In this document: positions 3,247-61,853 of the stretch, in pieces
Layout: each line of letters opens with the position of its first letter
How positions within the stretch are numbered: position 1 is the stretch's first letter
Assembly: GCA_021736975.1 (NCBI GenBank)
Contig: JAIPET010000001.1
Span: 26,147-90,146, forward strand
Origin: Candidatus Woesearchaeota archaeon
GTDB lineage: Archaea; Nanobdellota; Nanobdellia; Woesearchaeales; 21-14-0-10-32-9
Direction of reading: 5' to 3'
Length of the DNA: 64,000 nucleotides
Made by a program: the position numbers and the translations under genes
Notes under the pieces: generated by a model
Told to the model about the DNA's origin: nothing
The model's input: the letters and a program-made list of their open reading frames with translations, nothing else
Databases searched by the model: none

Positions 3247-3277
3247 AAGGTGTCTCAGCCCACTTAGCCTGACTATT

Positions 3278-3366
3278 CCGACAAACCGGCCATTATTGTT
3301 TAGATTATTGTTGCCGTTGAGACCGTTATAATTATTGTTAAGGAACAGGACACGGCCCCAAGAGTA
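3278..3366 (-). repeat. DGR template repeat (TR), non-coding
   Basis: About 89 bp homologous to the 3' ends of both target genes; every difference from the VRs falls where the TR has T on the + strand (A on the coding strand); TR codons in the VR frame are mostly AAT/AAC and a stop codon is present. Confidence 0.8.
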
Positions 3367-3561
3367 GCCATTTCACTTTCTGGAAAGCCACCACCACTTC
3401 ACACATTAGGTGTCGTGGTTGTATTTTATAACAGCTAGGCTGTCATAGTGAAACGACGTGTAGTTCCAAGCTACTTCATTGCTTTTAATAAAGCAGCTGA
3501 GACAAAGTAGTAAGAATATATCTTATATAAAAACGTTTTTGTTTTCAGATTCTTTGGATGA

Positions 3562-4464
3562 TTATTTTCGCGCGCTTGGCGCCTCCGGCGCTACCCCGAC
3601 AAACCGGCCACCACCGTATAGATTATCGTCGCCGCCGAGACCGCCATAATCACTGTACAGGAACAGGACACGGCCCTGAGGAGTACTAGCATCACGACCA
3701 CCAAAAGGATGATAACAACCTAAGGTATCATCAGACGTGTCTTTTGCTCTTTCAAAGTATTCTTCTAAATTTTGCATTCCTGCGTTTCTTGCCATCACTA
3801 AAGAATTTGCTAAAAACTCCCTTTTTTTAACATAAGTAGATTCAGTATTCTGAGCTACTGAGTAAGGCATTACAATTCCAAACTGATGAGGTAAATCAGA
3901 AACACCTTTTTTAATTTCATCATCAAAATGATATAATTTAATTCCAGAGCCATCAGGAAGTTTACCATCCAGTAAATCATCAAACTCTTGATTTGTATAT
4001 TTAGCACTACCACTTACTAATCCTTCATCATAAGCTTGTTTAATACGTTTAGGAGTTAGTATTCCTCCGCCATTAACTAAAACTAAGACTGGTTCATTAG
4101 CACCATAAAATCTTCCCTTTTGATCAATTCCGATGTTTTCTTCTGTGTGAACAGTAAGCCAATTTTTATAAAAATCATGATTCTTTCCAGCTTTAACTTT
4201 GGCTGCAATAAGTTCAGGCATTGTAGCAACATAACCAGTACTTCCAGCATGTTCTAAAGCTTGTTGCAAAGCATCAGCAAGATTGCCATCATAAAACATC
4301 TTGCCTTTTAATATATCATTAATATTAACCATGTTTTGAGGCATAGCAGGTTGAGTTCTATTTGGGTTATTAACAGGTTGCCTTAAAGGTATTTCTTGTC
4401 CAGGAATCCAACCAGTAGCTTGAATGAATTTCTCCAAATCTTTATCAGGAATTATTCGAGTCAT
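3562..4464 (-). CDS. DGR variable (target) protein 1 with C-terminal variable region
   Basis: 300 aa; paralog of 6465..7385 with identical N- and C-terminal ends (MTRIIPDKDLEKFIQATGWIPGQEIP...FVGVAPEAPSARK); VR lies at the 3' end. Confidence 0.75.
   Translation of the reverse strand: MTRIIPDKDLEKFIQATGWIPGQEIPLRQPVNNPNRTQPAMPQNMVNINDILKGKMFYDGNLADALQQALEHAGSTGYVATMPELIAAKVKAGKNHDFYKNWLTVHTEENIGIDQKGRFYGANEPVLVLVNGGGILTPKRIKQAYDEGLVSGSAKYTNQEFDDLLDGKLPDGSGIKLYHFDDEIKKGVSDLPHQFGIVMPYSVAQNTESTYVKKREFLANSLVMARNAGMQNLEEYFERAKDTSDDTLGCYHPFGGRDASTPQGRVLFLYSDYGGLGGDDNLYGGGRFVGVAPEAPSARK
3568..3597 (-). promoter_or_regulatory. GC-rich IMH-like element with hairpin (GCGCC-TCC-GGCGC) at the VR1 3' boundary
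   Basis: tcgcgcgcttggcgcctccggcgctacccc is identical at both VRs and absent from the TR (TR has tagcctgactattcc instead); contains a short palindromic stem. Confidence 0.5.
3596..3685 (-). repeat. DGR variable region VR1
   Basis: Aligns to TR 3278..3366; 14 substitutions at TR-adenine positions, one elsewhere, and one indel at the 5' edge. Confidence 0.75.
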
Positions 4465-6449
4465 TTTGAAAGTAACACCTCCAGTCCAGCCTGAAGCATT
4501 TTATCCTTATCGTGAACAGGATGATAAACAATGTTAGGATCATTTCTTACGGCATTTCCTAGATCATAAGTTCCACCAATTTCAAAAAGTACAACATGAT
4601 TATTAGGATTACTTGCTATTTCTTTCATTTTCTTGGCTTCTCTTTGTGTTCGACCATCAATAACTAAACTACCATCAGTTACAACAACATATGTTCTTTG
4701 CTGTCCATCACGATAATTTGTGATACTGATATCTTCTTCATCATAACCATTATTAGGCTTAAACAAAGCACCTAAAGGTCCTGTTTCTCCTTTCCAAAAT
4801 TGATCAACAGTTACAATATCTGAACTTACTTGAGAATTACCAAAATTATGAATTCTCATTTTTGTTTGTTTACCCACCTGCTTTTCTCCTTGATGTAAAG
4901 CATCAACAAAACCATACATGACATGACTTAACATATCCCATCTACTTCCGTCATTTACTTTATATCTGCCAGCAGTACCGCCAAACATACTTCCTGAACT
5001 GTCAAGATAAAACTCAACCATATCAGGAACATTCATATGAGCATCAACATAAACAATATCTTTAAGATCTCGCTCTTTTAATTCATACTCGTTAAGTCTA
5101 TAAGTGCTATTTCCTATATCCATAAGCCATGGCAAACGAGTTTTCTTTTGTAAAGTACTGATTCTTCCAAGATTTACTCTACTTAATTGGTCTTCGGTAA
5201 GGACAGTACTCTTCTTTAGATTCCAATATTCTTGTTTTCCAACTATAACACTCTCGCCAACTTTTTGACCTCCAAGAATTTGAACCTTAGGATGATTTCG
5301 TTTGTAAAATTCATGTGTAGCTAAAACATCAAGATTTTTCATCTCATCAGCACTAGAATCTTTACTGCCAGGTTTTTTATTATCAACATCTTGAGGAAGT
5401 TGCATCTGAGATGCAGCTTGTTGTAAATCACCATCACTTTCTTGAGCTAATCCTTGAACGAATTGTTGTTGTTCAACAGGCGTCATGTCATCTAATAAAT
5501 CTTGTAAAATATTTTGAGGTGAAGCACCGCTACCAGCACCTTGCATATCAGGTCTTCCTTGAGGCATTCCTTTCTGAACATAAGGACCTAATACAGCCAT
5601 AAAACGTTCAATACCTTTATATCTATCATCTCCAGAAAAAACCTCTCTAATATCACTAACATAGGCTTGAACACGCTCATAATTCTCTTGATCAGAACCA
5701 CTTCCAAATAAAGATTTAGCTCTATCGACTAACGAAGCTCCTTTTGATTTAGGTAAATCAACAGATTGACCAATTAAACTACCTAAAGCTTTCTCAGCAA
5801 CAGCAACTCCTTCTTTGCCAGATTTACCTTCAAAGAAGCCATGAGTGCTTGCAGGACCGTACATAACACCATACAAGAATCTTGTAACAGTATAAAAATT
5901 AGTTTCAGAAGGAGAATCTTGTAATTCTAACAAGTCCCAAGTAGGAATAATATCATCTCTAACATACTCTCCTTTTTTATTATCTAATGCGAAACGATTA
6001 TCTAAAATAAAATCTTTAACTCCATTTTGAGATGCTTGAACCTTAACTACTTGTTCAAGTGGACTAAGATTTGGTTCAGCTTTTACAACACCACGTCTAA
6101 TGGATTGGTGGATTAATTTGTTATCATTATTTTCTCCTTCAACACTAAAAGGAGCTTCAATAGGATGATAAAGTTCATGATGTAATAAGTAATGTAAAGT
6201 CTCTTTTGCTAATTCTTCAGGAGTTCCATCCCAATACTTAGCAACAACATCTTCAAACTTTTGAGCTAAATTATTATCTTGAGAAATTTCTGCATAAATT
6301 CTTTTAAGATCAGTTGAAAATGTCCAGTCACGACCATTTTGTGCAACTCTTCGAATAACAGGAGTATCACTACGTAAAGGAAAGTCTCTCCTGACGTCAT
6401 CACGCCAGTCACGTTCAGCTTCATTAAGAAGCAATTGCATATCTTTCAT
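4461..6449 (-). CDS. VWA-domain (MIDAS) protein with N-terminal HExxH metallopeptidase-like motif
   Basis: DSSGSM MIDAS motif followed by DG/VVTDG stretches in the C-terminal third; HHELYH near the N-terminus; lies between the two DGR targets in one operon. Confidence 0.5.
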   Translation of the reverse strand: MKDMQLLLNEAERDWRDDVRRDFPLRSDTPVIRRVAQNGRDWTFSTDLKRIYAEISQDNNLAQKFEDVVAKYWDGTPEELAKETLHYLLHHELYHPIEAPFSVEGENNDNKLIHQSIRRGVVKAEPNLSPLEQVVKVQASQNGVKDFILDNRFALDNKKGEYVRDDIIPTWDLLELQDSPSETNFYTVTRFLYGVMYGPASTHGFFEGKSGKEGVAVAEKALGSLIGQSVDLPKSKGASLVDRAKSLFGSGSDQENYERVQAYVSDIREVFSGDDRYKGIERFMAVLGPYVQKGMPQGRPDMQGAGSGASPQNILQDLLDDMTPVEQQQFVQGLAQESDGDLQQAASQMQLPQDVDNKKPGSKDSSADEMKNLDVLATHEFYKRNHPKVQILGGQKVGESVIVGKQEYWNLKKSTVLTEDQLSRVNLGRISTLQKKTRLPWLMDIGNSTYRLNEYELKERDLKDIVYVDAHMNVPDMVEFYLDSSGSMFGGTAGRYKVNDGSRWDMLSHVMYGFVDALHQGEKQVGKQTKMRIHNFGNSQVSSDIVTVDQFWKGETGPLGALFKPNNGYDEEDISITNYRDGQQRTYVVVTDGSLVIDGRTQREAKKMKEIASNPNNHVVLFEIGGTYDLGNAVRNDPNIVYHPVHDKDKMLQAGLEVLLSK

Positions 6450-6464
6450 TGTTTGATACCTTCT

Positions 6465-7385
6465 CTATTTTCGCGCGCTTGGCGCCTCCGGCGCTACCCC
6501 GACAAACCGGCCATAATTGTTAAGATAATTGGCGCCGCTGAGACCGAAATAACTATAGTTAAGGAACAGGACACGGCCCTGAGGAGTACTAGCATCACGA
6601 CCACCAAAAGGATGATAACAACCTAAATCACCATCACTTGCTTTTGCCATTTCATAATATGATTCTAAATTCTCAAGTCCTCCTGCTCGAGCAATAACTA
6701 AAGGATTTTTCATAAAATCTTTCTTTTGATGATAACCTGATTTAGTTCCTTGAGCTATAGAATAAGGCATAACAACACCAAACCTATGAGGTAAACCAGA
6801 AACACCATCTTTTATTTGTTCAAAAGAAAACAATTCAATCTGAGAACCATCAGCTAATTTACCATCTAACAGATTATCAAACTCTTGATTTTCATATCTC
6901 GCACTATTGCTAATTAAACCCTCACCATAGGCTTTCATAATTCTATCAGGTGTAAGTATTCCTCCACCATTAACAACTACTAAAACAGGCTCATTTGCAG
7001 AATAAAACCTACCTTTTTGATCAATTCCGATGTTTTCTTCAGTATGAACTGCATACCATTTTTGCCAAAAATCATGACTTTTTTCTGCTTTTAATTTAGC
7101 AGAAATAAGTTCGGGCATTGTGGCAACATAACCATCAGTTCCAACATAATCTAAAGCTTCACCTAAAGCAACTGCTAAACCAATATAATTACCATCTTTC
7201 TTTTTTTCACTAAAAAAAGTCTTTCCCTTCAAGATATCATCAATATTAACGATACTTTGAGAAGTAATGGGTTGTGTTCTATTTGGGTTATTAACAGGTT
7301 GTCTTACAGGTATTTCTTGTCCAGGAATCCAACCAGTAGCTTGAATGAATTTCTCCAAATCTTTATCAGGAATTATTCGAGTCAT
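6465..7385 (-). CDS. DGR variable (target) protein 2 with C-terminal variable region
   Basis: 306 aa paralog of 3562..4464; the C-terminal 30 residues differ only at VR positions. Confidence 0.75.
   Translation of the reverse strand: MTRIIPDKDLEKFIQATGWIPGQEIPVRQPVNNPNRTQPITSQSIVNIDDILKGKTFFSEKKKDGNYIGLAVALGEALDYVGTDGYVATMPELISAKLKAEKSHDFWQKWYAVHTEENIGIDQKGRFYSANEPVLVVVNGGGILTPDRIMKAYGEGLISNSARYENQEFDNLLDGKLADGSQIELFSFEQIKDGVSGLPHRFGVVMPYSIAQGTKSGYHQKKDFMKNPLVIARAGGLENLESYYEMAKASDGDLGCYHPFGGRDASTPQGRVLFLNYSYFGLSGANYLNNYGRFVGVAPEAPSARK
6471..6500 (-). promoter_or_regulatory. GC-rich IMH-like element, second copy
   Basis: Identical 30-mer to 3568..3597, immediately 3' of VR2. Confidence 0.5.
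6499..6588 (-). repeat. DGR variable region VR2
   Basis: Aligns to the TR; differences (T to A, G or C on the + strand) occur only at TR T positions. Confidence 0.75.
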
Positions 7386-7390
7386 TTTAT

Positions 7391-8980
7391 CTACCTCACA
7401 ATAGAACCTAACCTGTGCTCATAGATACTGCTTTGTCCTTTTTTAGATTGATAGATTTCTCCAAAAGCTTTTATTGCTTCAGGTCCTCTTTCTTTTAGAG
7501 CAGAAGAAATATCTCCCTCATATGACCTACTAAAATGATCAAGCACTACAAGGTCAGCTAACACTCTTGATCTCATTGTTGCTTGAGCTGCACTTGTTGC
7601 TTGAGTATTAAGTTGAGACATATTATGTTGTAAGAAATTAAGATATTCCTTAAATCCATGTTCTTGACCAACTTTAATGGCTCCTTGCCATGCAGCTTGT
7701 CTTAATCCATAACCTTCAGGAATTCCAGCACCCTTATGCATATCAGCATAAGCTGATCTAGCATCATTTACAAGAGCCATTAAACTACCATAATCAGTAC
7801 CTGTAATTGTCTTACTTTCTAAAATTACTCCAATTCCTGCAGTAACATCATTTAAACCAACAGATGCATCATACGAACCATCTTTTACTCCTTTAATAAA
7901 TCCAAGAAGTCGTGATAAATCTCTGATTTTTCTAAGATCACGTCTAACAAATCCGTGCTTTAATTTACCTTGTGCATCAAGAATCTTTCTATAATTATTA
8001 TCATCTCTAACTGAAAAGTTTGGAGTAACACCTGCTTGTTGTAGTAATTCAATATTTCTTTCAAATGTTTGTTTAGGATCATAACCTACATACCCAAGAG
8101 CTGCATCAATAAATTCTCTTGTTTGACCGTCAAGTTGAGATGGGAACTGCTCAGGGTCTGTTATAACTGGATAAACTTCTTTCCAGCTTCCTTTTACACC
8201 TGAACGTTTAGCAAATTCACTCCAAAACTGTTCGTGTAAATCTCCTGCTAATGTTTTTTCTAACTGACTTGAACCTGCTTCTGCAACTCCATTAGGAAAT
8301 TTGAATTTTAAGAATCTGTTTTCTCCTGCGATATCAAGGTCAAGTGCAGCACTATGTTCTGCATCCGCAGGGTTCATAGCAGCTAAGATAGCAAGTCCTT
8401 TGTAACTACCATCTTTTCCAGGAATAGGAAGCCTTAAGTAACCAGTATCTCCATTGACGTGTACTACGCCATCAACTACTTGAAATACTTCTTGACTATC
8501 TCCTCTGTTAATTTCATCAATAAATAATGCTCCGTATTTAGAACATTTTTCTTGGTCAATCCTTGTTTTTGGTACTCCATTCTCTAAAGTGGTTTTAGTA
8601 AAAGGTTCAAGAGCTGAACTGCCTAAAACTCCTCCACTTAGTCTAAGAGTGTAATGCCCATCAGGACCGAATACTGCATTGAATAAGGCATCACTCGTGT
8701 ACGTTTTTCCAACACCCGTTACACCTTCATAGAGTACGTGAAAATCATCAAAAAACATGGATGCAGTATCAATATCGAGTACTGTTACTTCGGTTGAATT
8801 TGGAGAAGGTAATCTTCCTTTTCCATTTAAAAATTTCACATCAACATTATCTCCTTCTGTAATCTCCATATAAGGCGTTGGAGATACAACGCCATCAAGT
8901 GTGTCATACAAAGTTTGAACGAAATGTTTTCTCATTTCCTTATGATCTTTTTTTTCAGTTGCCATTTTGTACTTCTCCAT
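7391..8980 (-). CDS. AAA+ ATPase, MoxR-like
   Basis: Walker A GVTGVGKT, Walker B ALFIDEINRGD; 529 aa; upstream in the same operon as the VWA protein and the DGR targets. Confidence 0.6.
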   Translation of the reverse strand: MEKYKMATEKKDHKEMRKHFVQTLYDTLDGVVSPTPYMEITEGDNVDVKFLNGKGRLPSPNSTEVTVLDIDTASMFFDDFHVLYEGVTGVGKTYTSDALFNAVFGPDGHYTLRLSGGVLGSSALEPFTKTTLENGVPKTRIDQEKCSKYGALFIDEINRGDSQEVFQVVDGVVHVNGDTGYLRLPIPGKDGSYKGLAILAAMNPADAEHSAALDLDIAGENRFLKFKFPNGVAEAGSSQLEKTLAGDLHEQFWSEFAKRSGVKGSWKEVYPVITDPEQFPSQLDGQTREFIDAALGYVGYDPKQTFERNIELLQQAGVTPNFSVRDDNNYRKILDAQGKLKHGFVRRDLRKIRDLSRLLGFIKGVKDGSYDASVGLNDVTAGIGVILESKTITGTDYGSLMALVNDARSAYADMHKGAGIPEGYGLRQAAWQGAIKVGQEHGFKEYLNFLQHNMSQLNTQATSAAQATMRSRVLADLVVLDHFSRSYEGDISSALKERGPEAIKAFGEIYQSKKGQSSIYEHRLGSIVR

Positions 8981-9281
8981 CTAGAATTTTTATTTTAATT
9001 TCAACAAGCGTTTTAGGTCTAAGTTTATCTCTTAGGAATGCAGGAATAATGATTATATTCTGAGCTCCTTGCTTGCTGATTTGTTTTGTTAGTGTAAATT
9101 CATTCATTATACATTCACCATATAAACCACATAATATTTACATGTTGTTACTATGTAGTAAGCACAACTACTATTTAAATCTTTCTATATTTAGTCACTT
9201 ATAAGTAGTCCTTATTTGCTTTAGTACTCTGTTATTTATAAAGAAATAGGTAATTCTTTAAAAAGTTCTCCAACATAAACA

Positions 9282-9476
9282 TTACTCTGTTATGGGGAAT
9301 TTTTCAATAATTATGAACTCTTTATCGCCTGATCTGACTGCACTAACTTGTACTTTACTGCCGCTCTTTAAACCAATAGCTTTAGCTTCACGAGTGACCA
9401 AAACTCCAATTCCATTCCCGTAAGTATTCAACTGTTTTACAGATCTTTCGATGATTTCTTTTTTTGAATCAGTCAT
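9282..9476 (-). CDS. AbrB/MazE-like swapped-hairpin DNA-binding protein
   Basis: 64 aa from the internal Met (MTDSKKEI...); NGIGVLVTREAKAIGLKSGSKVQV resembles an AbrB/SpoVT domain; divergent from the RT. Confidence 0.45.
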   Translation of the reverse strand: MTDSKKEIIERSVKQLNTYGNGIGVLVTREAKAIGLKSGSKVQVSAVRSGDKEFIIIEKFPITE

Positions 9477-9486
9477 ATATTGTATA

Positions 9487-9579
9487 ATACTGTATATAAC
9501 TAATAAACACAGTATTATACTGTATATTACATATCCTTTGAACAACGTTAATAAATAAATGTAAGATACTGTATATTAC
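9487..9579. promoter_or_regulatory. three direct repeats ATACTGTATATWAC in the AbrB/RT divergent promoter region
   Basis: Copies at 9487-9500, 9517-9530 and 9565-9579, the last abutting the RT ATG; a partial inverted copy lies at 9508-9520. Confidence 0.5.
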
Positions 9580-9580
9580 T

Positions 9581-11254
9581 ATGGGTGATAAAAAAGACAT
9601 TCTTGTAGAAATATATGATGAAGTTTGTTCATATGAAAATTTAGAGCTAGCATTTCAAAGAGCCAGAAGGGGAAAAACACTAAAGCAGTATGTGATTGAT
9701 TTTGAAAAAGATTTAAAGGAAAATTTATTACAATTAAGATCGGAACTTCTTTTACATACATACGAACCAAGACCATTAAAAACATTCATTCTACGAGATC
9801 CAAAAACAAGAAAAATTAGTAAATCTGCATTTAGAGACAGAGTCATTCATCATGCAATATGTAACGTTATAGAACCTGTTTTTGATAAGCGATTTGTTCA
9901 TGATTCGTTTGCTAATAGAATTGGTAAAGGAACTCTTAATGCGATAAAACGATTTGATGTTTTCAAGAGAAAAGTATCTAAGAATAATACTATAAAATGT
10001 TATGTTCTTAAAGCAGATATTAAAAGTTATTTTGATACAGTTGATCATGAGATTTTAATAAAACTTCTATGTAAAAGAATTCATGATGGGAGATTAATGT
10101 GGCTAATTAGAATTATATTAAATAATCATCAAGGAAAAGTATCGAGTAAGGGGATGCCTTTAGGAAATCTAACATCTCAATTCTTTGCTAACGTGTATCT
10201 TAATGAGCTTGATCAATATGTTAAACAAAAACTGCGAGCAAAATATTATATAAGATATGTAGATGATTTTGTAATCCTACATCAATCTAGAATTCAATTA
10301 GAAGAGTATAAGGAAAAGATAGACCAGTTTCTCAAAGAAAAATTAGAACTAAAATTACATCCATTTAAATCTCAAATTATAAAATTAGAAAAGGGAATTC
10401 CTTTTTTAGGAATCAGAGTTTTTTATCATCACAAACTTCTTGTGAAAAAGAATATGAGAAAATTTGAGAAAAAAATGGAAGTTATGAAAAAAGATTACCA
10501 ATTGGAAAAAATAGAACGTGAAAAAGTAATAGAAAAATATGAGGGATGGATTGCCTATGCATCACATGCTAACACATACAAATATAGAAAACGGATGACT
10601 AGTAAATTAAACCATTCTTTCCCTGCTCAATCTGAAGTAAAAATTACTGCAGTAAAAAAACATGAGAATTTTCATAAAAAAGTAGATTTAAGTAAAATTG
10701 ACTTTACCCAACAAAAAACTCTACAATTAATTAATAGAGGAGTATCTATTGATAACATCGCTAAACAAAGAAACTTAAAGATTGGAACTGTTTGGGATCA
10801 TATCGCAAATCTAGTGGAATATCATCAAGTACCTCTTAAAAAAGTAATAACAACAAAGAAAGTTCATAAAATATTGTATGCAATAAAATCTCCAGAAGAT
10901 AAACTCAAAGATATCAAACAAAGAATAAATGATGAATCAATAAGTTATAATGAAATTCAAGTAGTACTTGCAAATGTAAAATCAAAGCATAAGAAAAAAA
11001 GTATTTCATATTATGTTGAATGGTATCAAAGAACAAACTGCTTTAGGAAATGCTATTACAATAAAGATCAAAGAAAAGAATGTCGAGTTAAATTTCAGCA
11101 ATTAGTAGCAAAAGGATTGAATATGGAGTTCTCAAAACATGATTTTCTGGATTTTTTTCATAATCATGTGAATATCTGTGTTCTACCTGAGAAAGATAAA
11201 AAAAGATTTATGTCTTGGGATGAATTTAAGAAATCAATTAAAAAGAAGCATTGA
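9581..11254 (+). CDS. DGR reverse transcriptase with about 180-aa C-terminal extension
   Basis: RT motifs: FDTVDH, GMPLGNLTSQFFANVYLNELD (DGR-type ...GxxxSQ) and YIRYVDDFVIL (YxDD); the extension carries an HTH-like segment and a Cys cluster. Confidence 0.85.
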   Translation: MGDKKDILVEIYDEVCSYENLELAFQRARRGKTLKQYVIDFEKDLKENLLQLRSELLLHTYEPRPLKTFILRDPKTRKISKSAFRDRVIHHAICNVIEPVFDKRFVHDSFANRIGKGTLNAIKRFDVFKRKVSKNNTIKCYVLKADIKSYFDTVDHEILIKLLCKRIHDGRLMWLIRIILNNHQGKVSSKGMPLGNLTSQFFANVYLNELDQYVKQKLRAKYYIRYVDDFVILHQSRIQLEEYKEKIDQFLKEKLELKLHPFKSQIIKLEKGIPFLGIRVFYHHKLLVKKNMRKFEKKMEVMKKDYQLEKIEREKVIEKYEGWIAYASHANTYKYRKRMTSKLNHSFPAQSEVKITAVKKHENFHKKVDLSKIDFTQQKTLQLINRGVSIDNIAKQRNLKIGTVWDHIANLVEYHQVPLKKVITTKKVHKILYAIKSPEDKLKDIKQRINDESISYNEIQVVLANVKSKHKKKSISYYVEWYQRTNCFRKCYYNKDQRKECRVKFQQLVAKGLNMEFSKHDFLDFFHNHVNICVLPEKDKKRFMSWDEFKKSIKKKH

Positions 11255-12201: not shown

Positions 12202-12256
12202 GGTTTATGTACACTCTAATAAAATAATATAAAGAAAAAAATAGATTTCTTTATCT

Positions 12257-13159
12257 ATGACAGATGAGCTTATCAAAGAGATAAATAGTTTTATTGAAGA
12301 ACTAGATAAGACAATAGAAGATTCATACGATTCTAAAAATATTATTGATAGTTTCATCGCCAATAATTATTCTACGTCAGAAGAGATTAATCAATTCATT
12401 GAACTTATTCAAGATCTTGATGAAGAAAAACCAAAGCAAGATCTAGAGGTTTTTGATGAAACACAAAATGAAATTTCCTTTATGTTGGAAGAACCATCAT
12501 CATTTATTGGTGATTCTCTTAAAAGACGTAATTTAGGAAGCGGTATATCAATTATAGTCGGATTTCTAAAGGATAGTACAAGAGCAAATTTAGCTTTACA
12601 AAGTTTCAGATTCAACAAGAAAGATCCATATAATTGGACTATGGATAAAGCTAAGGATTGGCTTAAAGGTAAAAAAGTCATTGAAGATAATAAAAGACAA
12701 GATCTCAAAAATCTTGAATATGTAACTATTGATGACGTTAAAATTCTCCATGTTCTAAAAGAAGGAACTAAACTAAGAATATTAGGAGTAGCAATTAGTG
12801 AGGGAGAATGGAACGGAATATTTTATCCAGCTAAAGAACTTGAGAAAGGATGTAAAAGTCTTGTAGGAAGACCACTAAGAATAGATCACTCATCAAGTTC
12901 AAGAGATATAGTTGGAAAAGTAATCAAATCAGTTTATGTTCCTGAGAAAAAGTGGATCGAGTTTGAAGCAATCGTAACTGATGAAGAGATTGCACAAAAG
13001 TTACTCGACAAACTTATTGATTCTGTTAGTGTCGGCGTACTCATAGATAAAGATGAGGTTGATGGTAAACCTGTGGCTCGTAATCTTGAGTTTAAGGAAT
13101 TAAGTTTAGTTGATGACCCCGCATGTAAAGATGCTAAGATTAAGCCTGTAAAAAATTGA
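12257..13159 (+). CDS. prohead serine protease (HK97 family) with N-terminal extension
   Basis: C-terminal ...ELSLVDDPA... motif and position immediately 5' of the scaffold and capsid genes. Confidence 0.5.
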   Translation: MTDELIKEINSFIEELDKTIEDSYDSKNIIDSFIANNYSTSEEINQFIELIQDLDEEKPKQDLEVFDETQNEISFMLEEPSSFIGDSLKRRNLGSGISIIVGFLKDSTRANLALQSFRFNKKDPYNWTMDKAKDWLKGKKVIEDNKRQDLKNLEYVTIDDVKILHVLKEGTKLRILGVAISEGEWNGIFYPAKELEKGCKSLVGRPLRIDHSSSSRDIVGKVIKSVYVPEKKWIEFEAIVTDEEIAQKLLDKLIDSVSVGVLIDKDEVDGKPVARNLEFKELSLVDDPACKDAKIKPVKN

Positions 13160-14094: not shown

Positions 14095-14901
14095 ATGAAA
14101 TCAATGAAAGAACTGTTTTCAACACAAGATGCGGCACCTATCATTAAAGAAATCATTGACGCTAATGTGTTCAAGGTTGCTACAAGAGAAAGGGTTGGTC
14201 GTCAAATCTTGCGATTAATAAATTTGAGCGAGGGCTCTTCAATAAAAATCCCCAAGATGGGTAAAGGAAAAGCGTATGTTATTCCTGAACTTGGAGAAAT
14301 CCCACTAGATGTAAGTACATTTGGCGATGTGGTTATCACACCATATAAGATTGGAAAAGCATTTGCTGTTCCATCAGAAGCTATCGAAGATTCAGCTTTT
14401 GACGTGATTAAACTAAAAGCAGATATGGCAACAGAAGATGTTGTTGCTAAAGAAGATGATGAAATCTTCAGAGTAATAAGTAATACTACAAACACTGTGT
14501 CTCCAAAGACTGTAGGAGAGTTTGTCCAGGAAGACGTTATTACTCTAAGAAATGCTGTCAACAAGAATAACTACAAAGCCAAGTTCTTAGTAGGTCATCC
14601 TGATGATATCGCTAAGCTTGAGAAAGATCTTATTAGCAAGGGCTATAAGGCTTTTGATAGACTTGACGAAGATGGAATCATCGGTAATGTCTCTGGATTA
14701 AGGGTTCTTGAAACTACAGCTGTGGAAGCAGGTTCTGTTATTGCTTTGGATAGCAGGGCAGTTGTGTTAGTTGAAAGACGACCTCTGAAGTTGAAGAACT
14801 TTGAAGATCCATTAAGAGATCTTGCAGGTGGAGTTACACTAACTGAAAGGGTAGCACCAGCAGTCCTTGATGACAATGCAATAGCGAAGATGATTTTGTG
14901 A
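14095..14901 (+). CDS. major capsid protein, HK97 fold (paralog 1)
   Basis: 268 aa, RBS-like GAGGAGG upstream, gene-order position; the C-terminal half is clearly paralogous to 14947..15684. Confidence 0.5.
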   Translation: MKSMKELFSTQDAAPIIKEIIDANVFKVATRERVGRQILRLINLSEGSSIKIPKMGKGKAYVIPELGEIPLDVSTFGDVVITPYKIGKAFAVPSEAIEDSAFDVIKLKADMATEDVVAKEDDEIFRVISNTTNTVSPKTVGEFVQEDVITLRNAVNKNNYKAKFLVGHPDDIAKLEKDLISKGYKAFDRLDEDGIIGNVSGLRVLETTAVEAGSVIALDSRAVVLVERRPLKLKNFEDPLRDLAGGVTLTERVAPAVLDDNAIAKMIL

Positions 14902-18089: not shown

Positions 18090-18464
18090 ATGGAAATTAA
18101 TACAGAAGACTTTGACAAAATAGTGGACTTAGATCTTGGAATAGATGTAACTTTAAGAAGAAAAACCACTACAGTTGATCCTGATTATGGAAGTTTAATC
18201 TCAGATTCAAATCAAGATACAATTATCAAAGTGGTCTGGCAAGAAATAACTGGGGAAGAGGAAAACTTTAGACCTGAAGGTGGGTTTAACATTGGAGACA
18301 TTAAGTGTTTTACAAAATCCAGTTATGAAAATGGGACTTTGATCATCGACTCAAAAACAGATACAATACTAAAAGGGGGAGTTGAACATAAGATCCTCAA
18401 AAATACTAATCACACAGTTGGTGATACAGTGGTGTACAAGGTGCTACATCTTAGGCTGAAATAA
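18090..18464 (+). CDS. head-tail joining protein candidate
   Basis: 124-aa ORF with tight coupling. Confidence 0.3.
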   Translation: MEINTEDFDKIVDLDLGIDVTLRRKTTTVDPDYGSLISDSNQDTIIKVVWQEITGEEENFRPEGGFNIGDIKCFTKSSYENGTLIIDSKTDTILKGGVEHKILKNTNHTVGDTVVYKVLHLRLK

Positions 18465-18492
18465 TATAAAGAAAAAAACATGATTTAGTTCT

Positions 18493-28356: not shown

Positions 28357-28704
28357 ATGGGAGTAACTAAGAAAGGAAAAAAGCAGATCTTGGAATTACT
28401 GCAAGGGCAAATCTCTCACTTCGGGTTAGGTACAGATTCATCAAGTGAATCTGAGTTTGCAGAGAATCTTGGAGATGAGAAGTTCAGGAAAGTAATTACC
28501 GATAATGCAATTGATGAAGAAACTCTAAGCATGGATGTAGAGTGCTTTCTTGGTTCAGGAGAAGCCAATGGACATGACTTCTCTGAGATAGGTATATTTG
28601 ACTCAGCGAGTGGTGGAAATATGTTTGTGATATCAAACTTTCCTCCTGAAGAAAAAACCCCTCTACTTGAGTGGTTGATCGATGTTGTAATCGAGATAAA
28701 ATAA
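28357..28704 (+). CDS. small tail protein (paralog B)
   Basis: 115 aa paralog of the preceding gene. Confidence 0.35.
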   Translation: MGVTKKGKKQILELLQGQISHFGLGTDSSSESEFAENLGDEKFRKVITDNAIDEETLSMDVECFLGSGEANGHDFSEIGIFDSASGGNMFVISNFPPEEKTPLLEWLIDVVIEIK

Positions 28705-28732
28705 CATAAAGAAAGAAATATGAGGTGTTACT

Positions 28733-35958: not shown

Positions 35959-36066
35959 AATGTTTCACCAAAGGAAAATATTTTCATAAATAGAAATGAG
36001 TATTTTTTTCTTTATATTATTTCAGCAGACACGATGTCTTATTATATAAGAAGAAGAAATAAAAGA

Positions 36067-45666: not shown

Positions 45667-48069
45667 ATGAAATACGAATTAATAGGATTAGGAAACCCGA
45701 TGATGGATATAATGTTAGAAGTCTCTGATGAAAAATTACAAGAATTAAATTTACAAAAAGGACAATGCAACTTAGTAGATGAAGAAACAATAAAAAAATT
45801 AGAATCGCAAATAGATGAATCAAATGGAAAATTGATTTTAGGCGGATCAGTATCAAATATGATTGCAATATTCTCGCAATTAGGCGGAAAATCAAAATTT
45901 ATAGGAAAAATAGGTTCTGACAAAATAGGTCAAAAATATGAAGAAGGAATGAAAAAAATAGGAGTAGATCCAAATCTAATAATTTCTGAAAAAATGACAG
46001 GACGAAATTTAAATTTTGTGACTCCAGACTCAGAAAGAACAATGACAGTTCATCTAGGTTCTGCATTAACATTAAGATCAGAAGACATATCAGAAGAGAT
46101 AATACAAGAAACAAAATATTTCCAAGTAGCAGGATACGTATTAGAAGACGAAAATCTAAGAACTGCAACAATAAAAGCATTCAAAATAGCAAAACAAAAA
46201 GGAGCAAAAATATCAATAGACTTAGCAGATCCATGGCTGGTAGAAAGATGTAAAAACTCTTTATTAGATATAGTTAAAGAACACGCAGACATATTATTTG
46301 CAAACGAAGAAGAAGCAAAAAAAATAACAGGAAAAGAAACAGCAAAAGAATCAATAGAAGAACTATCAAAATATGTAGATTTAGTAATTGTAAAAATAGG
46401 AAAAGAAGGAAGCATAATAAAAAAACAAAACGAAAAAATAATCACAATAAAAGGATTTAAAGTAGAAGCAAAAGACACAACAGGAGCAGGGGATAGCTAC
46501 GCAGGAGCATTCTTATATGGATTAACACAAAATTGGCCACTAGAAAAAACAGGAAAACTAGCATCCTTTATAGCATCAGAAGTTGTAAAAATCATAGGTG
46601 CAAGATTAACAAAAATACCTGAATACGAACACATATTCAAAAATACATTTTCAACGGAGGAAACAAAAATGGATTATAAAGTAGCAGATATATCGCAAGC
46701 AAAATACGGAAGACAAGAAATAACAATAGCAGAAAAAGAAATGCCAGGACTAATAGCACTAAGAGAAAAATACGGCGAAGAAAAACCACTAAAAGGCGCA
46801 AAAATAATGGGCTCACTACACATGACAATACAAACCGCAGTACTCATAGAAACATTATCTGAATTAGGAGCAGACGTAAGATGGTGCTCATGCAATATTT
46901 ATAGTACACAAGACCATGCAGCAGCAGCAATAGCACAAACAGGAATACCTGTATTTGCATGGAAAGGAGAAACACTAAAAGAATACTGGTGGTGCACAGA
47001 ACAAGCACTAACTTGGCCAGATGGAACAGGACCAGACCTAATAGTTGATGATGGAAGCGACGCAACAATGCTCGTTCACAAAGGAGCTGCAGCTGAAAAA
47101 AATCCTGCTTTGCTAAACATTGATTACAGTAGTGAGGGTGAAGATTACCAAGAACTAATAAAATTAATAAAAGAATCATATCAAAAAGACAAAACTAAAT
47201 GGACAAAAATCGCTGAATACATAAAAGGAGTAAGCGAAGAAACAACAACAGGCGTAAATAGACTATACCAAATGATGAAAAACAAAGAATTACTATTTCC
47301 TGCAATAAACGTGAATGACTCAGTAACAAAAAGCAAATTTGACAACCTATACGGCTGCAGAGAATCATTAGCAGACGGAATCAAAAGAGGAACAGACGTA
47401 ATGATAGCAGGAAAAAAAGTTTTAGTATGCGGATATGGAGATGTAGGGAAAGGATGCGCACACAGCATGAAAAGCTATGGTGCTAGAGTTACAGTAACCG
47501 AAATAGATCCAATATGCGCATTACAAGCAGCAATGGAAGGATACGAAGTAAAAACCATTGAAGATGTCGTATCGGATGTAGATATATTTGTAACAACAAC
47601 AGGAAATAAAGACATAATAACAATACAGCACATGGAAAAAATGAAAGACAACGCAATAGTTTGCAACATCGGACATTTTGACAACGAAATCCAAGTAGAA
47701 AAACTAGAAAAATATCCAGGAATAAAAGAAGAAAACATAAAACCACAAGTAGACAAATTCGAATTCCCAGACGGACATTCAATAGTTTTACTAAGTAGAG
47801 GAAGACTAGTAAATCTAGGAAATGCAACAGGACACCCAAGCTTTGTAATGAGTAACAGTTTTACAAACCAAGTACTAGCACAAATAGAACTATGGAAAAA
47901 CAAACACGAAATAGGAGTAAGCGTACTTCCAAAAGAACTAGACGAAGAAGTAGCAAGACTGCACTTAGCAAAAATAGGAGTGAAACTAACTAAACTAAGC
48001 AAAGAACAAGCAGACTACATAAACGTTAAACAAGAAGGACCATATAAACCAAATCACTATAGGTATTAA
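45667..48069 (+). CDS. fused adenosine kinase (PfkB family) and S-adenosyl-L-homocysteine hydrolase
   Basis: N-terminal half has the PfkB signature [13 protein letters not shown]; C-terminal half has SAHH hallmarks ([20 protein letters not shown]-binding [10 protein letters not shown]); single uninterrupted 800-aa ORF. Confidence 0.8.
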
Positions 48070-48258
48070 TTTTTTTTTTATTTTTTACTTTTTGGGCATG
48101 CATAAATTATGTATTTATATCCGCGGAAAAAATATGGATGCGACCGTAATCAGCTAATGCTGATTGAATATAGTTGTTTTATGTGTTTTTTCTGCAAGAA
48201 AAAAAGCCGAAGGCTCAGTTCAAAAAATATTTTTCGCACTTCTTCAAAAACGAGCTTT

Positions 48259-49999: not shown

Positions 50000-50042
50000 A
50001 TTGCAATTAATCCTTGTTATACGTTTTTTCTGCAAGAAAAAA
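50000..50042 (+). repeat. dif-like site followed by the hairpin TTTTTTCTGCAAGAAAAAA; start of a 130-bp repeat module
   Basis: ATTGCAATTAA-TCCTTG-TTATACG then a perfect 8-bp stem with GCA loop; the module 50000-50130 is about 95% identical to 56125-56245. Confidence 0.6.
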
Positions 50043-50155
50043 AGCTGAAGGCTCAGTTAAATTTTCACGTTAATAAATATCGACCAAAGGGAGCCTATAT
50101 GTCCGAAGGACGAGTTGGGGCGTTTTAAATAGTTAAATATATAATGAGTTAATGT

Positions 50156-51214: not shown

Positions 51215-51238
51215 AATTGCGTATAAGCCTTGTTATAC
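51215..51238 (+). repeat. dif-like palindromic site ATTGCGTATAA-GCCTTG-TTATACG
   Basis: 7-bp perfect inverted arms CGTATAA/TTATACG around a 6-bp spacer; a member of an at least 10-copy family, all in + orientation, lying between the single-gene units. Confidence 0.6.
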
Positions 51239-51302
51239 GTTTTTTCTGCAAGAAAAAATCGCGAAGTGAAACGTAGCGACAGTATGACGCAAGGTGGTGG
51301 CG

Positions 51303-52982: not shown

Positions 52983-53084
52983 TTAAATATTAAATGTCAA
53001 GAGTAATATATAAATATTTCTAGAGTGAGTGTGCCCCTTTCAAATCTTTAGCCCTCTTTCTCGATTGAGTTTAAGTGCTGTTAT

Positions 53085-53125
53085 CTTTCCTGACGACCAA
53101 AGGGAGGAAAGCGCAGCGGGGCTCG
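53085..53125 (+). repeat. repeat module B: CGACGACYRAARGGAGGARAGCGCAGCGGGGC
   Basis: Copies at 53085-53125, 53958-53995 and 58897-58930, partial at 60072-60100; contains the SD-like AAAGGAGG. Confidence 0.5.
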
Positions 53126-53902: not shown

Positions 53903-54102
53903 ACCAAACCCCCTTCTTTTTTTTAGGACTTATTCTCAATTGAAGATAATTCCTGTTATGTCTCCCGACGACTAAAAGGAGGAGAGCGCAGCGGGGCAAA
54001 ATCCAAAGGATTTTGAGTTCAGAATTCGGGCGTTATTAATATTAACTTTAAAGTGGTAACAGTACCGAAAGATTTATAAATATAAAGTCAATTCATTTTA
54101 TT

Positions 54103-54433: not shown

Positions 54434-54472
54434 GACATAATCCTTGTTATACGTTTTTTCTGCAAGAAAAAA
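54434..54472 (+). repeat. dif-like half site plus hairpin TTTTTTCTGCAAGAAAAAA
   Basis: ...ATAA-TCCTTG-TTATACG followed by the hairpin; a variant module is shared with 51239-51300. Confidence 0.5.
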
Positions 54473-54518
54473 TTGCGAAATGAAATGGAGCAACAGTATG
54501 ACGCAGAGAGCTTTTCCG

Positions 54519-56124: not shown

Positions 56125-56245
56125 AATATAAGCTCTGTTATACGTTTTTTCTGCAAGAAAAAAAGCCGAAGGCTCAATTAAATTTTCACGTCAATCAATA
56201 ACGACCAAAGGGAGCCAATATGTCCGAAGGACGAGGGGGGTCCAG
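56125..56245 (+). repeat. dif-like half site, hairpin and 100-bp repeat module (second copy)
   Basis: Near-identical to 50000-50130; ends in the left inverted repeat of the next unit. Confidence 0.6.
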
Positions 56246-58877: not shown

Positions 58878-58897
58878 CGTATATCCCTTGTTATACG
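58878..58897 (+). repeat. dif-like site
   Basis: CCGTATAT-CCCTTG-TTATACG. Confidence 0.5.
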
Positions 58898-58969
58898 CCC
58901 CGACGACTGAAAGGAGGAGAGCGCAGCGTGGTGCGAACGAAGTGAGCAAGTCAGTGGAGTGGCGTTAAT

Positions 58970-61037: not shown

Positions 61038-61853
61038 ATGACTTTTGATGTTCTTTACAATATGAAAAGAGAAATGCTCCGTCGCAAACTTTCTCCAAGA
61101 ACAGTAAAAACCTATTTGAATTATGTTAAAATGTTTTTGCTTGCTAATAAAGAAAAAGATGTTAGAAAATTTTCTAAAAAAGACGTAAGAGAATTTCTTT
61201 ATAAACTTGAAGAAAAAAAAGTTTCAGGAAGTACACTAAATGTAGCTCATAACGCTTTGCGTTTCATGATGATTGATGTTTTACACAAAGCTTGTTATTT
61301 AAAAATAAAATATGCAAAAACTCCTGTTAGACAAATAGAATATCTAACTAAAGAAGAGGTTATTAAAATTTTAAATGTTATTGAAAATGCAAAACATAAA
61401 TTATTAATTTCTTTGATGTATGGAGCAGGTCTTAGAGTGCGAGAAGTGACTCGTTTAAAGATTACAGATTTTAGTTTTGAAGAAAATATTGGATTTGTTA
61501 GAGGAGGAAAAGGAAACAAGGATAGATTATTTATTATTCCTCAAAAAATAAAGAAAGAACTACAAAAAGTTTGTTCTCAAGAAACACACTGGATTTTTCC
61601 AGGAAGAAACGGTTCGTTAACTGTCAAATCTGTACAATTAATTGTTAAACAGGCAGGAAAGAAAGCAAAAATAAAAAAACATGTTCATCCACACATATTT
61701 AGACATTCATTCACAACGCATTTATTAGAATCAGGAATTGATGTAAATTCAGTTCAAGGACTTCTTGGACATGTAAGACCAGAAACAACTCTAGGATATT
61801 CGCATACATTAAGACCGAAAAAGATTACAATAAAAAGTCCGCTAGATTACTAA
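61038..61853 (+). CDS. xer: Xer-like tyrosine recombinase (XerA/XerC/D family)
   Basis: GLRVREVTRL (box I Arg); HPHIFRHSFTTHLLESGIDVNSVQGLLGHVRPETTLGYSHT (box II H-x-x-R...H...Y); 271 aa. Confidence 0.8.
   Translation: MTFDVLYNMKREMLRRKLSPRTVKTYLNYVKMFLLANKEKDVRKFSKKDVREFLYKLEEKKVSGSTLNVAHNALRFMMIDVLHKACYLKIKYAKTPVRQIEYLTKEEVIKILNVIENAKHKLLISLMYGAGLRVREVTRLKITDFSFEENIGFVRGGKGNKDRLFIIPQKIKKELQKVCSQETHWIFPGRNGSLTVKSVQLIVKQAGKKAKIKKHVHPHIFRHSFTTHLLESGIDVNSVQGLLGHVRPETTLGYSHTLRPKKITIKSPLDY

Follow-up and report, generated by a model that had tools for sequence, protein, structure and literature searches.

The DGR of Bordetella phage BPP-1, arranged as brt-avd-TR-mtd, is virus-borne and relies on adenine-specific transfer from a template repeat (TR) to a variable repeat (VR) at the 3' end of its target. 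DGRs have also been described for Nanoarchaeota and ANMV-1, that is, for DPANN archaea and archaeal viruses, with small basic ORFs located between the reverse transcriptase (RT) and the target (Paul et al. 2015, PMC4372165). C-terminal extensions, reaching ~150 aa and with no motif found in them, were reported for about 20% of DGR RTs (PMC4372165; survey by Wu et al. 2018, PMC5758913). According to the same survey, 29% of DGRs are without accessory genes, and the Treponema-type DGRs of architecture C have HRDC-type accessory proteins (Wu et al. 2018, PMC5758913). Control of DGR mutagenesis is largely obscure, and our literature search on DGRs found no description of a dedicated regulator. Autoregulated divergent promoters are served by small dimeric repressors, such as the AbrB/MazE-type antitoxins, and the archaeal repressors MDR1, Phr, and LrpA occupy the interval from the TATA box to the transcription start site.

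The DGR considered here was analyzed within a 64-kb stretch of DNA (the window) and is carried by a provirus of the head-tailed kind, whose host is a DPANN archaeon of Woesearchaeota/Nanoarchaeota type. It is a genuine DGR: a TR (3273..3358, minus strand; repeat family D6) is paired with VR1 (3591..3676, minus strand) and VR2 (6494..6579, minus strand), which lie at the 3' ends of the target genes at 3562-4464 and 6465-7385, respectively; TR adenines account for 16 of the 17 mismatches with VR1 and for all 12 with VR2; and an RT is encoded nearby (9581..11254, plus strand). The RT domain spans aa 75-280 (Pfam RVT_1, E 7.7e-27; PHROG reverse transcriptase, E 7e-114) and contains the SQxFxN-type motif (LGNLTSQFFANVY). 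Directly 5' of the TR lies an RT-16 RNA (Rfam RF03019; 3359..3502, minus strand; cmscan score 84.1 bits, gathering score 50, E 1.1e-11). Every relative examined has the RNA at this position too, and the relatives of the RT likewise adjoin RT-16/TR units.

The locus thus resembles the BPP-1 DGR in its adenine-specific TR-to-VR transfer, in the position of the VRs, in the SQxFxN-type motif of its RT, and in being virus-borne, but differs from it in several respects. There is no Avd: no Avd-type Pfam domain was found among the neighbors in the window or in the related loci examined. There are two target genes, the TR and the RT are on opposite strands 6 kb apart, an RT-16 RNA precedes the TR, the RT has a roughly 215-aa extension, and a dedicated small protein is accompanied by putative operators at the RT promoter. 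We consider it probable, judging from sequence, that this protein of 64 aa is an autorepressor which also blocks transcription of the putatively leaderless RT gene and thereby gates DGR activity.

The preliminary description had pointed to the length of the RT, to an HTH-like segment, and to a Cys cluster in its C-terminal part, and had proposed a domain search of residues 380-557. All three features were borne out. The ORF encodes 557 aa, and its extension (aa ~340-557) comprises two domains. The first, at aa 376-463 (10706..10969, plus strand), is HTH_40 (PF14493), which takes in the HTH-like segment noticed initially and is similar to the HTH domain at the C-terminus of RecQ-type helicases; Pfam recognizes it over the full profile (positions 1-89 of 89, E 1.8e-19, 70.2 bits, cut-off 27), the isolated segment scores 75.3 bits, and it is structurally similar to a solved helicase C-terminal domain. 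The second, at aa ~480-557 (11018..11251, plus strand), is a helical domain with the pattern CX3CX9CX31C, in which C487, C491, C501, and C533 are conserved in 100%, 100%, 100%, and 98%, respectively, of 114 aligned full-length relatives. This Cys4 domain has no match in Pfam or PDB and falls outside known families; its conserved cysteines might bind a metal or an Fe-S cluster.

The long RT is not an oddity of this locus. The combination of RVT_1 and HTH_40 is present in 120 of the 120 top RT homologs, which measure about 540-610 aa and come from DPANN archaea, ruling out that the extension is a read-through artifact. It is a trait of a large DPANN clade, and databases already annotate RVT_1 plus HTH_40 automatically; we found no paper that names both HTH_40 and reverse transcriptase. 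Unlike in the earlier accounts of DGR RT extensions (PMC4372165, PMC5758913), the extension can be assigned, to a RecQ-C-terminal-like HTH_40 and a Cys4 domain. A parallel is the HRDC-type accessory, which likewise represents the recruitment of a nucleic-acid-binding domain from the C-terminus of a RecQ-type helicase to a DGR; however, that accessory is a separate gene of a different fold family, whereas in this RT HTH_40 is part of the same polypeptide and Cys4 comes after it, with a function that is predicted. The extension is a clade-wide, separate feature and probably a nucleic-acid-binding module serving the retrohoming reaction rather than operator regulation. It marks a large uncharacterized clade of Avd-less DGR RTs, and its ligand would bear on how retrohoming proceeds without Avd. 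We do not claim that HTH_40 replaced Avd, because the short-RT relatives are also without Avd. Nor do we claim that the extension compensates for the placement of RT and TR RNA in trans, which is only partly true: RT-16/TR is collinear with the RT in 10 of 10 short-RT relatives and on the opposite strand here and in most HTH_40 RT loci, but three long RTs (loci L016, L027, and L045) have the collinear RT-16-TR-RT arrangement.

The RT and the gene of the 64-aa protein (9282..9476, minus strand) are transcribed divergently from a shared intergenic region of 104 bp (9477-9580), close to the 100 bp or so estimated initially. As reported in the preliminary description, the 14-mer ATACTGTATATWAC occurs there three times (9487-9500, 9517-9530, and 9566-9579), the last copy ending 1 nt 5' of the RT ATG. 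These are the only exact copies in the 64 kb; all six matches with up to two mismatches are also inside the region, a number reached in none of 100 shuffles. The copies had been taken for direct repeats, but are better described as parts of a 19-bp inverted repeat, GTAATATAC-N-GTATATTAC, a consensus that forms a clean dyad across 22 sites and that, in the 64 kb, is limited to 9472-9579, where it is present in four copies (O0 to O3).

The putative operators alternate with two TATA-like boxes. O3 (9561..9579; GTAAGATACTGTATATTAC, one mismatch to the consensus) holds the third 14-mer and is preceded by the A/T-rich TTAATAAATAAAT (9548..9560, plus strand; -33..-21 relative to the RT ATG), a putative core promoter that would give a leaderless RT mRNA. 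O2 (9512..9530; GTATTATACTGTATATTAC, one mismatch; -54..-36 from the small-gene ATG) holds the second 14-mer, and between it and O1 lies TGTGTTTATTA (9501..9511, minus strand), which would serve the small gene as its core promoter. O1 (9482..9500; three mismatches; -24..-6) holds the first 14-mer and shares a half-site with O0 (9472..9490; three mismatches), which overlaps the small-gene start codon. Judged by their match to the consensus, O2 and O3 are strong sites, whereas O0 and O1 are weaker and overlapping. The small-gene start is the ATG at 9476 and not the TTG at 9545, with homologs aligning from MTDSKKE, and the RT start codon and the sequence directly 5' of it are retained in L001 and L056. 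Leaderless starts are plausible for the first genes of transcription units in this virus, which are preceded by an A/T box at about -33..-26 and by no SD motif; internal genes have GGAGG or GGTGA.

The intergenic region is more conserved than the genes on either side, being 93% identical to that of L056 (RT, 78%; small gene, 86%) and 83% identical to that of L057 (RT, 70%; small gene, 74%). This conservation, the palindromic form, the placement between TATA-like box and start codon, and the recurrence described below suggest that the repeats are very probably operator sites controlling the RT and hence retrohoming, as originally proposed. A resemblance of the palindrome to the LexA box (TACTGTATAT) was rejected, as symmetry and spacing differ; LexA is a bacterial regulator.

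Palindromes can also form hairpins, and the repeats might act as RNA, masking the RT start codon within a 5' untranslated region (UTR). A long leader could originate from a second conserved promoter-like element at 9148..9209 (plus strand), which points toward the RT and consists of the palindrome TTACTATGTAGTAA (9148-9161), TATTTAAA (9172-9179), and TCACTTATAAGTAGT (9195-9209). The element also precedes the RT of L002, L003, L004, L017, L024, L025, and L056, and RT transcription probably started from it ancestrally; a transcript with a long leader, or an antisense one, could arise from it, perhaps placing the site in a 5' UTR. Yet the folding energy of the region is not clearly better than that of shuffled sequences (z of -1.2 for the RT strand and -2.1 for the other), the 1-nt center leaves poor, A/U-rich hairpins, and the same sites flank TATA boxes in intergenic regions of 51-62 bp that have no room for a UTR. 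An action as RNA is therefore very improbable, and we favor operators in DNA.

The candidate reader of these operators, the 64-aa protein, is basic (7.0 kDa, pI 9.45) and belongs to a family of 122 clusters that are 57-98% identical to it (most at 70% or more) and nearly all 61-68 aa long. The family has no counterpart in Pfam, NCBIfam, or PHROG, and a search of 1.84 billion proteins yielded only 18 representatives at E < 1e-3. The preliminary description had assigned the protein an AbrB fold and suggested that structure prediction be used to distinguish AbrB from Avd. Avd, a four-helix bundle of roughly 110-130 aa, can be set aside for a protein of 64 aa with no Pfam match and a beta-rich predicted secondary structure of three beta-strands and one short helical stretch. 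Membership in AbrB was not confirmed: PF04014 (MazE_antitoxin/SpoVT-AbrB) does not match the protein, gives no significant match to its distant relatives, and hits only 3 of 45 family members, at E-values of at least 0.015 and below the cut-off. The fold is not recognizably DNA-binding. The toxin domain that one would expect beside a type II antitoxin is also absent downstream of the gene in the window, but HEPN_Swt1 or DruA genes follow in some other contexts of the family.

The palindrome travels with this protein. In a small sample of 12 independent contexts of the family, chosen from the longest contigs, it is found upstream of the small gene in all 12, including all four that were added later to the survey. 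Five contexts are linked to an RT (the window/L056, L057-60, L061, L065, and L069-71, the last with a remnant RT that an IS200-type gene interrupts), and seven are without an RT (L062, with DUF5343 and HEPN_Swt1; L067; L072; L074; L075, with DUF2779; L076, with DruA; and L077). Across about 727 kb of fetched loci, a search allowing two mismatches returned 25 matches within 130 nt upstream of small-gene homologs; the only two others come from L064, a duplicate of the L001 contig, and repeat its sites. Degenerate versions with four mismatches occur in L061, L069, and L077, and the variant small protein of L077 is accompanied by the half-sites GTATGATAC. The preliminary description had suggested a search for the 14-mer in related viruses; the palindrome of which it is a part recurs upstream of every family member examined.

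The arrangement is equally constant, running from a site at the divergent start codon through a TTTATT(A/T)A box to a second site that overlaps or abuts the small-gene ATG. The box adjoins a palindrome in all contexts, and the site-TATA-site unit seen at the small gene is repeated in L062, L065, L067, L074, L075, and L076; the proximal site overlaps the ATG in these same loci except L067. On the other side, the distance to the start codon of the divergent gene is 0-1 nt in L056, L057/58, L062, L065, L067, L072, and L075 and 7-9 nt in L076 and L077.

These observations bear on who reads the sites. The RT contains a genuine HTH-type domain and has O3 right next to its start codon, so that HTH_40 might bind the repeats and the RT regulate itself. 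However, the palindrome is present in the seven contexts without any RT and, at up to two mismatches, absent from HTH_40 RT loci without the small gene (L002-4, L016, L024-27, and L036), including the collinear L016 and L027, as it is from the collinear L045; HTH_40, for its part, is conserved throughout the clade irrespective of the operator. Self-regulation by the RT accordingly has a very low probability, and the palindrome, in the loci examined, goes with the 64-aa protein and not with the RT.

Another factor, be it a host or viral regulator or TBP/TFB, might read the palindromes, which would then make up a portable promoter accompanying a small gene whose protein has some other job. The promoter region would be inherited along with the gene whoever binds it, and the lack of a recognizable DNA-binding fold fits such a reading. 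Against it, two to four dyad-symmetric 19-mers flanking a TATA box and covering both start codons are what classically marks a divergent promoter under autoregulation, the sites are better conserved than the coding DNA, and the cassette occurs in distantly related DPANN lineages and viruses, so that a separate trans-acting factor would have to be co-conserved everywhere. We regard this alternative as unlikely.

Somewhat less likely still is that the 64-aa protein is a DGR accessory factor, an Avd stand-in that binds the RT and/or the TR RNA, with the palindromes serving merely autoregulation or promoter function. The protein is small and basic, sits between the RT and the target genes, and exceeds the RT in conservation; none of the loci examined has an Avd Pfam domain; and the nanoarchaeal ORFs located between RT and target were termed Avd-like from pI and mass alone (PMC4372165, Fig. 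3). Nevertheless, 7 of the 12 contexts of the protein are without an RT, many HTH_40-RT DGRs (the same L002-4, L016, L024-27, and L036) and all short-RT relatives are without the protein, and the predicted structure is beta-rich rather than a four-helix bundle. Unlike the small ORFs as originally described (PMC4372165, PMC5758913), this one belongs to a family that is linked to the operator and found outside DGRs as well, and is therefore more likely a regulator than an Avd analog, although it may combine both roles. Should the nanoarchaeal ORFs prove to belong to this family, they would probably be regulators instead of Avd-like proteins.

The reading as an autorepressor accounts for the dyad-symmetric, repeated sites specific to the protein's own upstream region, and its size, basic pI, and high conservation suit a regulator. 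The 64-aa protein would bind O0 to O3, probably as a dimer or higher oligomer. Since each site falls in the interval from a TATA-like box to the start codon of a gene that appears to be leaderless, occupancy should block recruitment of RNA polymerase: at O3 the RT would be shut off, whereas O0, O1, and O2 would mediate autoregulation of the small gene and perhaps also control the co-directional genes (50-aa ORF, 529-aa ORF, target 2, 662-aa ORF, and target 1). With the palindromes covering the start points of both genes, the protein would act as an on/off switch for targeted hypermutation, the limited supply of RT gating mutagenic retrohoming. The promoter of the RT-16/TR RNA (3503-3561) appears to contain a TATA box of its own and to be free of operators, none being detected there at up to three mismatches.

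In this design, the locus resembles autoregulated divergent promoters, with multi-copy palindromes over the TATA-to-start interval of both genes and a small basic candidate regulator. As in AbrB/MazE-type systems, the cassette often heads defense-like or TA-like operons (HEPN_Swt1, DruA); unlike the antitoxins of that type, the protein has no toxin partner at this locus, its membership in the superfamily is not confirmed, and its binding and mode of repression are putative. The locus thus offers a compact candidate for the control of DGR mutagenesis, consisting of a 64-aa protein, a 19-bp operator, and predicted promoter occlusion of a leaderless RT. Since other DPANN genomes have the same cassette ahead of defense-like genes, it may be a regulatory part of general use in these organisms, which are so far beyond genetic manipulation, and it could serve as a minimal orthogonal repressor-operator pair. 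A broader reading, which we consider possible but somewhat less likely than not, is that this portable unit of a 7-kDa protein of unrecognized fold and its operator would be the first dedicated DGR on/off switch to be described, coupling hypermutation in DPANN viruses and cells to a signal and gating HEPN_Swt1, DruA, and DUF2779 genes elsewhere, while the fused HTH_40 and Cys4 domains would replace the accessory protein and define an Avd-independent DGR lineage.

Scans of viral contigs, using either the RT or the small protein as query, returned only a single near-identical contig (L001 = L064) and are therefore uninformative on conservation. The first co-directional gene downstream of the small gene, a conserved 50-aa ORF (8955..9107, minus strand) without a match in Pfam or PHROG, has an AbrB-like IIIIPAFLRDKL pattern and is a second small candidate regulator; its homologs are directly divergent from long RTs in L004, L024, and L025 and are also present in L057-L060.

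The locus is a genuine DGR within a provirus. A repeat family, D6, ties the template repeat (TR, 3273-3358) to variable repeats (VRs) at 3591-3676 and 6494-6579, each at the 3' end of one of two paralogous minus-strand genes, and TR adenines account for 16 of 17 and 12 of 12 of the TR/VR mismatches. An Rfam RT-16 RNA (RF03019, 84 bits; 3359-3502, minus strand) lies directly 5' of the TR, and the portal (293-2392) and capsid (14095-14901) genes stand on either side of the DGR. The element forms a divergon about a 104-bp region, with the RT gene on the plus strand and, in minus-strand order, a small gene, a 50-aa ORF, a 529-aa ORF, target 2, a 662-aa ORF, target 1, RT-16, and the TR. No Avd gene was found in the window or in the related loci examined (numbered with the prefix L), and the nearest homologues of the RT carry Woesearchaeota or Nanoarchaeota labels. 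Across the window and loci L005-L061, RT-16 runs collinear with the RT in 10 of 10 loci with short RTs, whereas it lies opposite the long, HTH_40-bearing RT in most loci, being collinear with it in L016, L027, and L045. The 662-aa (4461-6449) and 529-aa (7391-8980) minus-strand ORFs are each paired with one target gene and yielded no family match beyond a weak AAA_25 hint (E 0.07); the 529/523-aa protein and the ~300-aa target are conserved in L002, L004, L024, and L057-L060.

The RT ORF (9581-11254, plus strand) encodes 557 aa, as the preliminary description had it, with RVT_1 at residues 75-280 and, where that description saw an HTH-like segment, HTH_40 (PF14493) at residues 376-463, both exceeding the Pfam cut-offs. 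Its proposed Cys cluster is equally real: when the RT is aligned with 113 full-length relatives, conservation spans the whole extension, and C487, C491, C501, and C533 (CX3CX9CX31C) are 98-100% conserved. All of the top 120 homologues, most of them ~540-610 aa long, combine RVT_1 with HTH_40, so that the extension is a clade trait, neither a read-through artefact nor a feature that makes this RT unusual within its own lineage. Shorter DPANN relatives (365-385 aa; RT core 55-63% identical) are without it. About 20% of DGR RTs carry extensions, in which no recognisable motif was reported (Wu et al., PMC5758913), and none of the papers searched linked HTH_40 to RTs.

The small gene ends at 9282 on the minus strand. 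Although its longest reading starts at TTG 9545, nearly all of 120 homologues are 61-68 aa long and align from ATG 9476, which defines a 64-aa product (7.0 kDa, pI 9.45) and a 104-bp intergenic region (9477-9580). Most relatives are 70-98% identical to the window copy, and the protein is thus more conserved than the accompanying RT. The family is compact, a search of 1.84 billion proteins giving only 18 representatives at E<1e-3, and has no entry in Pfam, NCBIfam, or PHROG. Its AF2 model (beta-alpha-beta-beta, pLDDT 85.4) is of a monomer; a swapped-hairpin fold needs a dimer to form. Of the two folds that structure prediction was to distinguish, the model excludes the Avd-type four-helix bundle; the AbrB-fold label given earlier was not confirmed, the Pfam MazE_antitoxin model matching only 3 of 45 family members (E>=0.015) and hhalign aligning the protein with MazE at E 0.019-0.29, in register over the GNG...VxV pattern.

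The divergent region contains three exact copies of the 14-mer ATACTGTATATWAC (starts 9487, 9517, and 9566), the last stopping 1 nt ahead of the RT ATG, in full agreement with the preliminary description. Exact copies are confined to this region within the 64-kb window, and all six matches at <=2 mismatches fall here too, a count reached in 0 of 100 shuffles. Rather than simple direct repeats, however, the copies belong to a 19-bp palindrome, GTAATATAC-N-GTATATTAC, derived from the contigs of eleven family members, of which the 14-mer is the centre and right arm. Four palindromes can be placed: O0 (9472-9490) and O1 (9482-9500), each with 3 mismatches, and O2 (9512-9530) and O3 (9561-9579), each with 1. 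L056, a syntenic virus with an 84% identical RT, has the same 104-bp region, the second and third 14-mer copies being exact. Identity between the window and L056 is 93% in the intergenic region, 78% in the RT, and 86% in the small gene; for L057 the values are 83%, 70%, and 74%. The higher intergenic identity is taken as a sign of selection on the region. That the repeats act as RNA hairpins seems very improbable, folding of the region giving z-scores of -1.2 and -2.1, no clear gain over shuffles.

Across ~727 kb of fetched loci, 25 palindromes at <=2 mismatches precede small-gene homologues by no more than 130 nt, and the only two others belong to L064, which duplicates the L001 contig. The layout is near-constant: one site close to the start codon of the divergent gene, at 0-1 nt (in L076 and L077, 7-9 nt), then a TTTATT(A/T)A box, and a second site overlapping or abutting the small-gene ATG, the whole unit fitting intergenic regions down to 51-62 bp. 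In the window, the O2-TATA-O1/O0 unit is placed for the small gene, and an additional half-unit, TATA (9548-9560) plus O3, for the RT. The earlier proposal of operator sites controlling retrohoming is thereby substantially supported, through palindromy, conservation, and co-occurrence with the 64-aa protein, for which the repeats are candidate operators; another factor reading the palindromes is a minor possibility.

The small gene and palindrome occur together in 12 independent contexts, five DGR-linked (window/L056; L057-L060; L061; L065; L069-L071) and seven without an RT. In the latter, the small gene heads or neighbours DUF5343 and HEPN_Swt1 genes (L062), a peptidase-like pair (L067), DUF2779 (L075), or a DruA-domain protein (L076), or stands alone (L072, L074, and L077). 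These contexts, together with DGRs that do without the 64-aa protein, make it unlikely to be an Avd-like cofactor. They also count against self-regulation of the RT through its own HTH_40, a reading to which we give scarcely any credence, since HTH_40-RT loci without the small gene have no palindrome at <=2 mismatches either; HTH_40 is thus an unlikely reader of the sites. A likelier role for the extension, judging from the helicase-derived HRDC proteins that serve some DGRs as accessory factors (Wu et al., PMC5758913), is that of a module binding nucleic acid during retrohoming. L062, L075, and L076 are cellular DPANN contigs, in which the cassette heads defence-like genes. L069-L071 hold a decayed DGR (~3900-4000) in which the small gene, a target gene, and RT-16 survive, the RT being cut off by an IS200-type Y1 transposase gene that adjoins its 5' remnant (MGSKDLSKRDIWQDL...).

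Our preferred reading, which we consider probable, is that oligomers of the 64-aa protein bind the palindromes and repress both the RT promoter and that of the small gene. Bound protein would occlude the TATA-to-start interval of both divergent promoters, and a lowered RT supply would limit mutagenic retrohoming. The sites are placed as for those archaeal repressors that act from downstream of the TATA box, which favours repression over activation. In this virus, the first genes of transcription units show an A/T box ~26-33 nt before the ATG and no Shine-Dalgarno motif, whereas GGAGG or GGTGA is found at internal genes. The RT and the small gene both lack a Shine-Dalgarno motif, which makes leaderless organisation plausible; a leaderless start would put O3 at about -1 to -20 of the RT promoter. 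The locus is a DGR whose RT has the HTH_40+Cys4 extension and which comes with its own dedicated and portable cassette of candidate repressor and operators. The case is a comparative one throughout; it is solid, lends itself to experiment, and has a bearing on how DGRs are regulated.

Another conserved, promoter-like element occupies 9148-9209, between the 50-aa ORF and the small-gene 3' end, and comprises the palindrome TTACTATGTAGTAA (9148-9161), TATTTAAA (also listed as TATTTAAATCTTTC; 9172-9179), and TCACT..AGT (also listed as TCACTTATAAGTAGT; 9195-9209). It is oriented toward the RT, antisense to the 64-aa gene, and could give an antisense or long-leader transcript. The same element immediately precedes long RTs in L002, L003, L004, L017, L024, L025, and L056. 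The 50-aa ORF (8955-9107, minus strand; MNEFTLTKQISKQGAQNIIIIPAFLRDKL...) is conserved, with an AbrB-like IP-x-x-L-R pattern and no family match; its homologues occur in L057-L060 and are the RT's divergent neighbour in L024, L025, and L004. Where the 64-aa gene is lacking, the element stands just ahead of the long RT and this ORF faces the RT as its divergent neighbour. The element may be the ancestral promoter of the RT and the operator of the 50-aa protein. Its position in those loci suggests that, in this lineage, insertion of the 64-aa gene with its operators separated an older promoter from the RT. Elsewhere, the probable standard promoter of the virus is a recurrent motif, AATAATATAAAGAAAAAAA, found ~12-33 nt upstream of first genes without Shine-Dalgarno motifs (217-262, 12219-12264, ~18460-18492, ~28700-28732, and ~35960-35990).

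The right third of the window, from ~45.6 kb to 64000, carries cellular genes, including a PfkB-AdoHcyase fusion (45667-48069), a XerC-like integrase (61038-61853), and genes for a symporter, queuosine salvage, and an aminotransferase. The virus has therefore either integrated beside host DNA or been joined to it in assembly. The window yielded no tRNA. A GC-rich repeat, ...CCTGACGACCAAAGGGAGGAAAGCGCAGCGGGGC, is present in three copies (53034-53122, 53909-53997, and 58889-58931) in this otherwise AT-rich genome, with no Rfam or tRNA match. An intergenic repeat family of the cellular part, TGTTATACGTTTTTTCTGCAAGAAAAAAAGCCGAAGGCTCAG, which contains the palindrome TTTTTTCTGCAAGAAAAAA (48172-48223, 50007-50075, 51223-51291, 54437-54505, and 56128-56196), may be a terminator or REP-like element.
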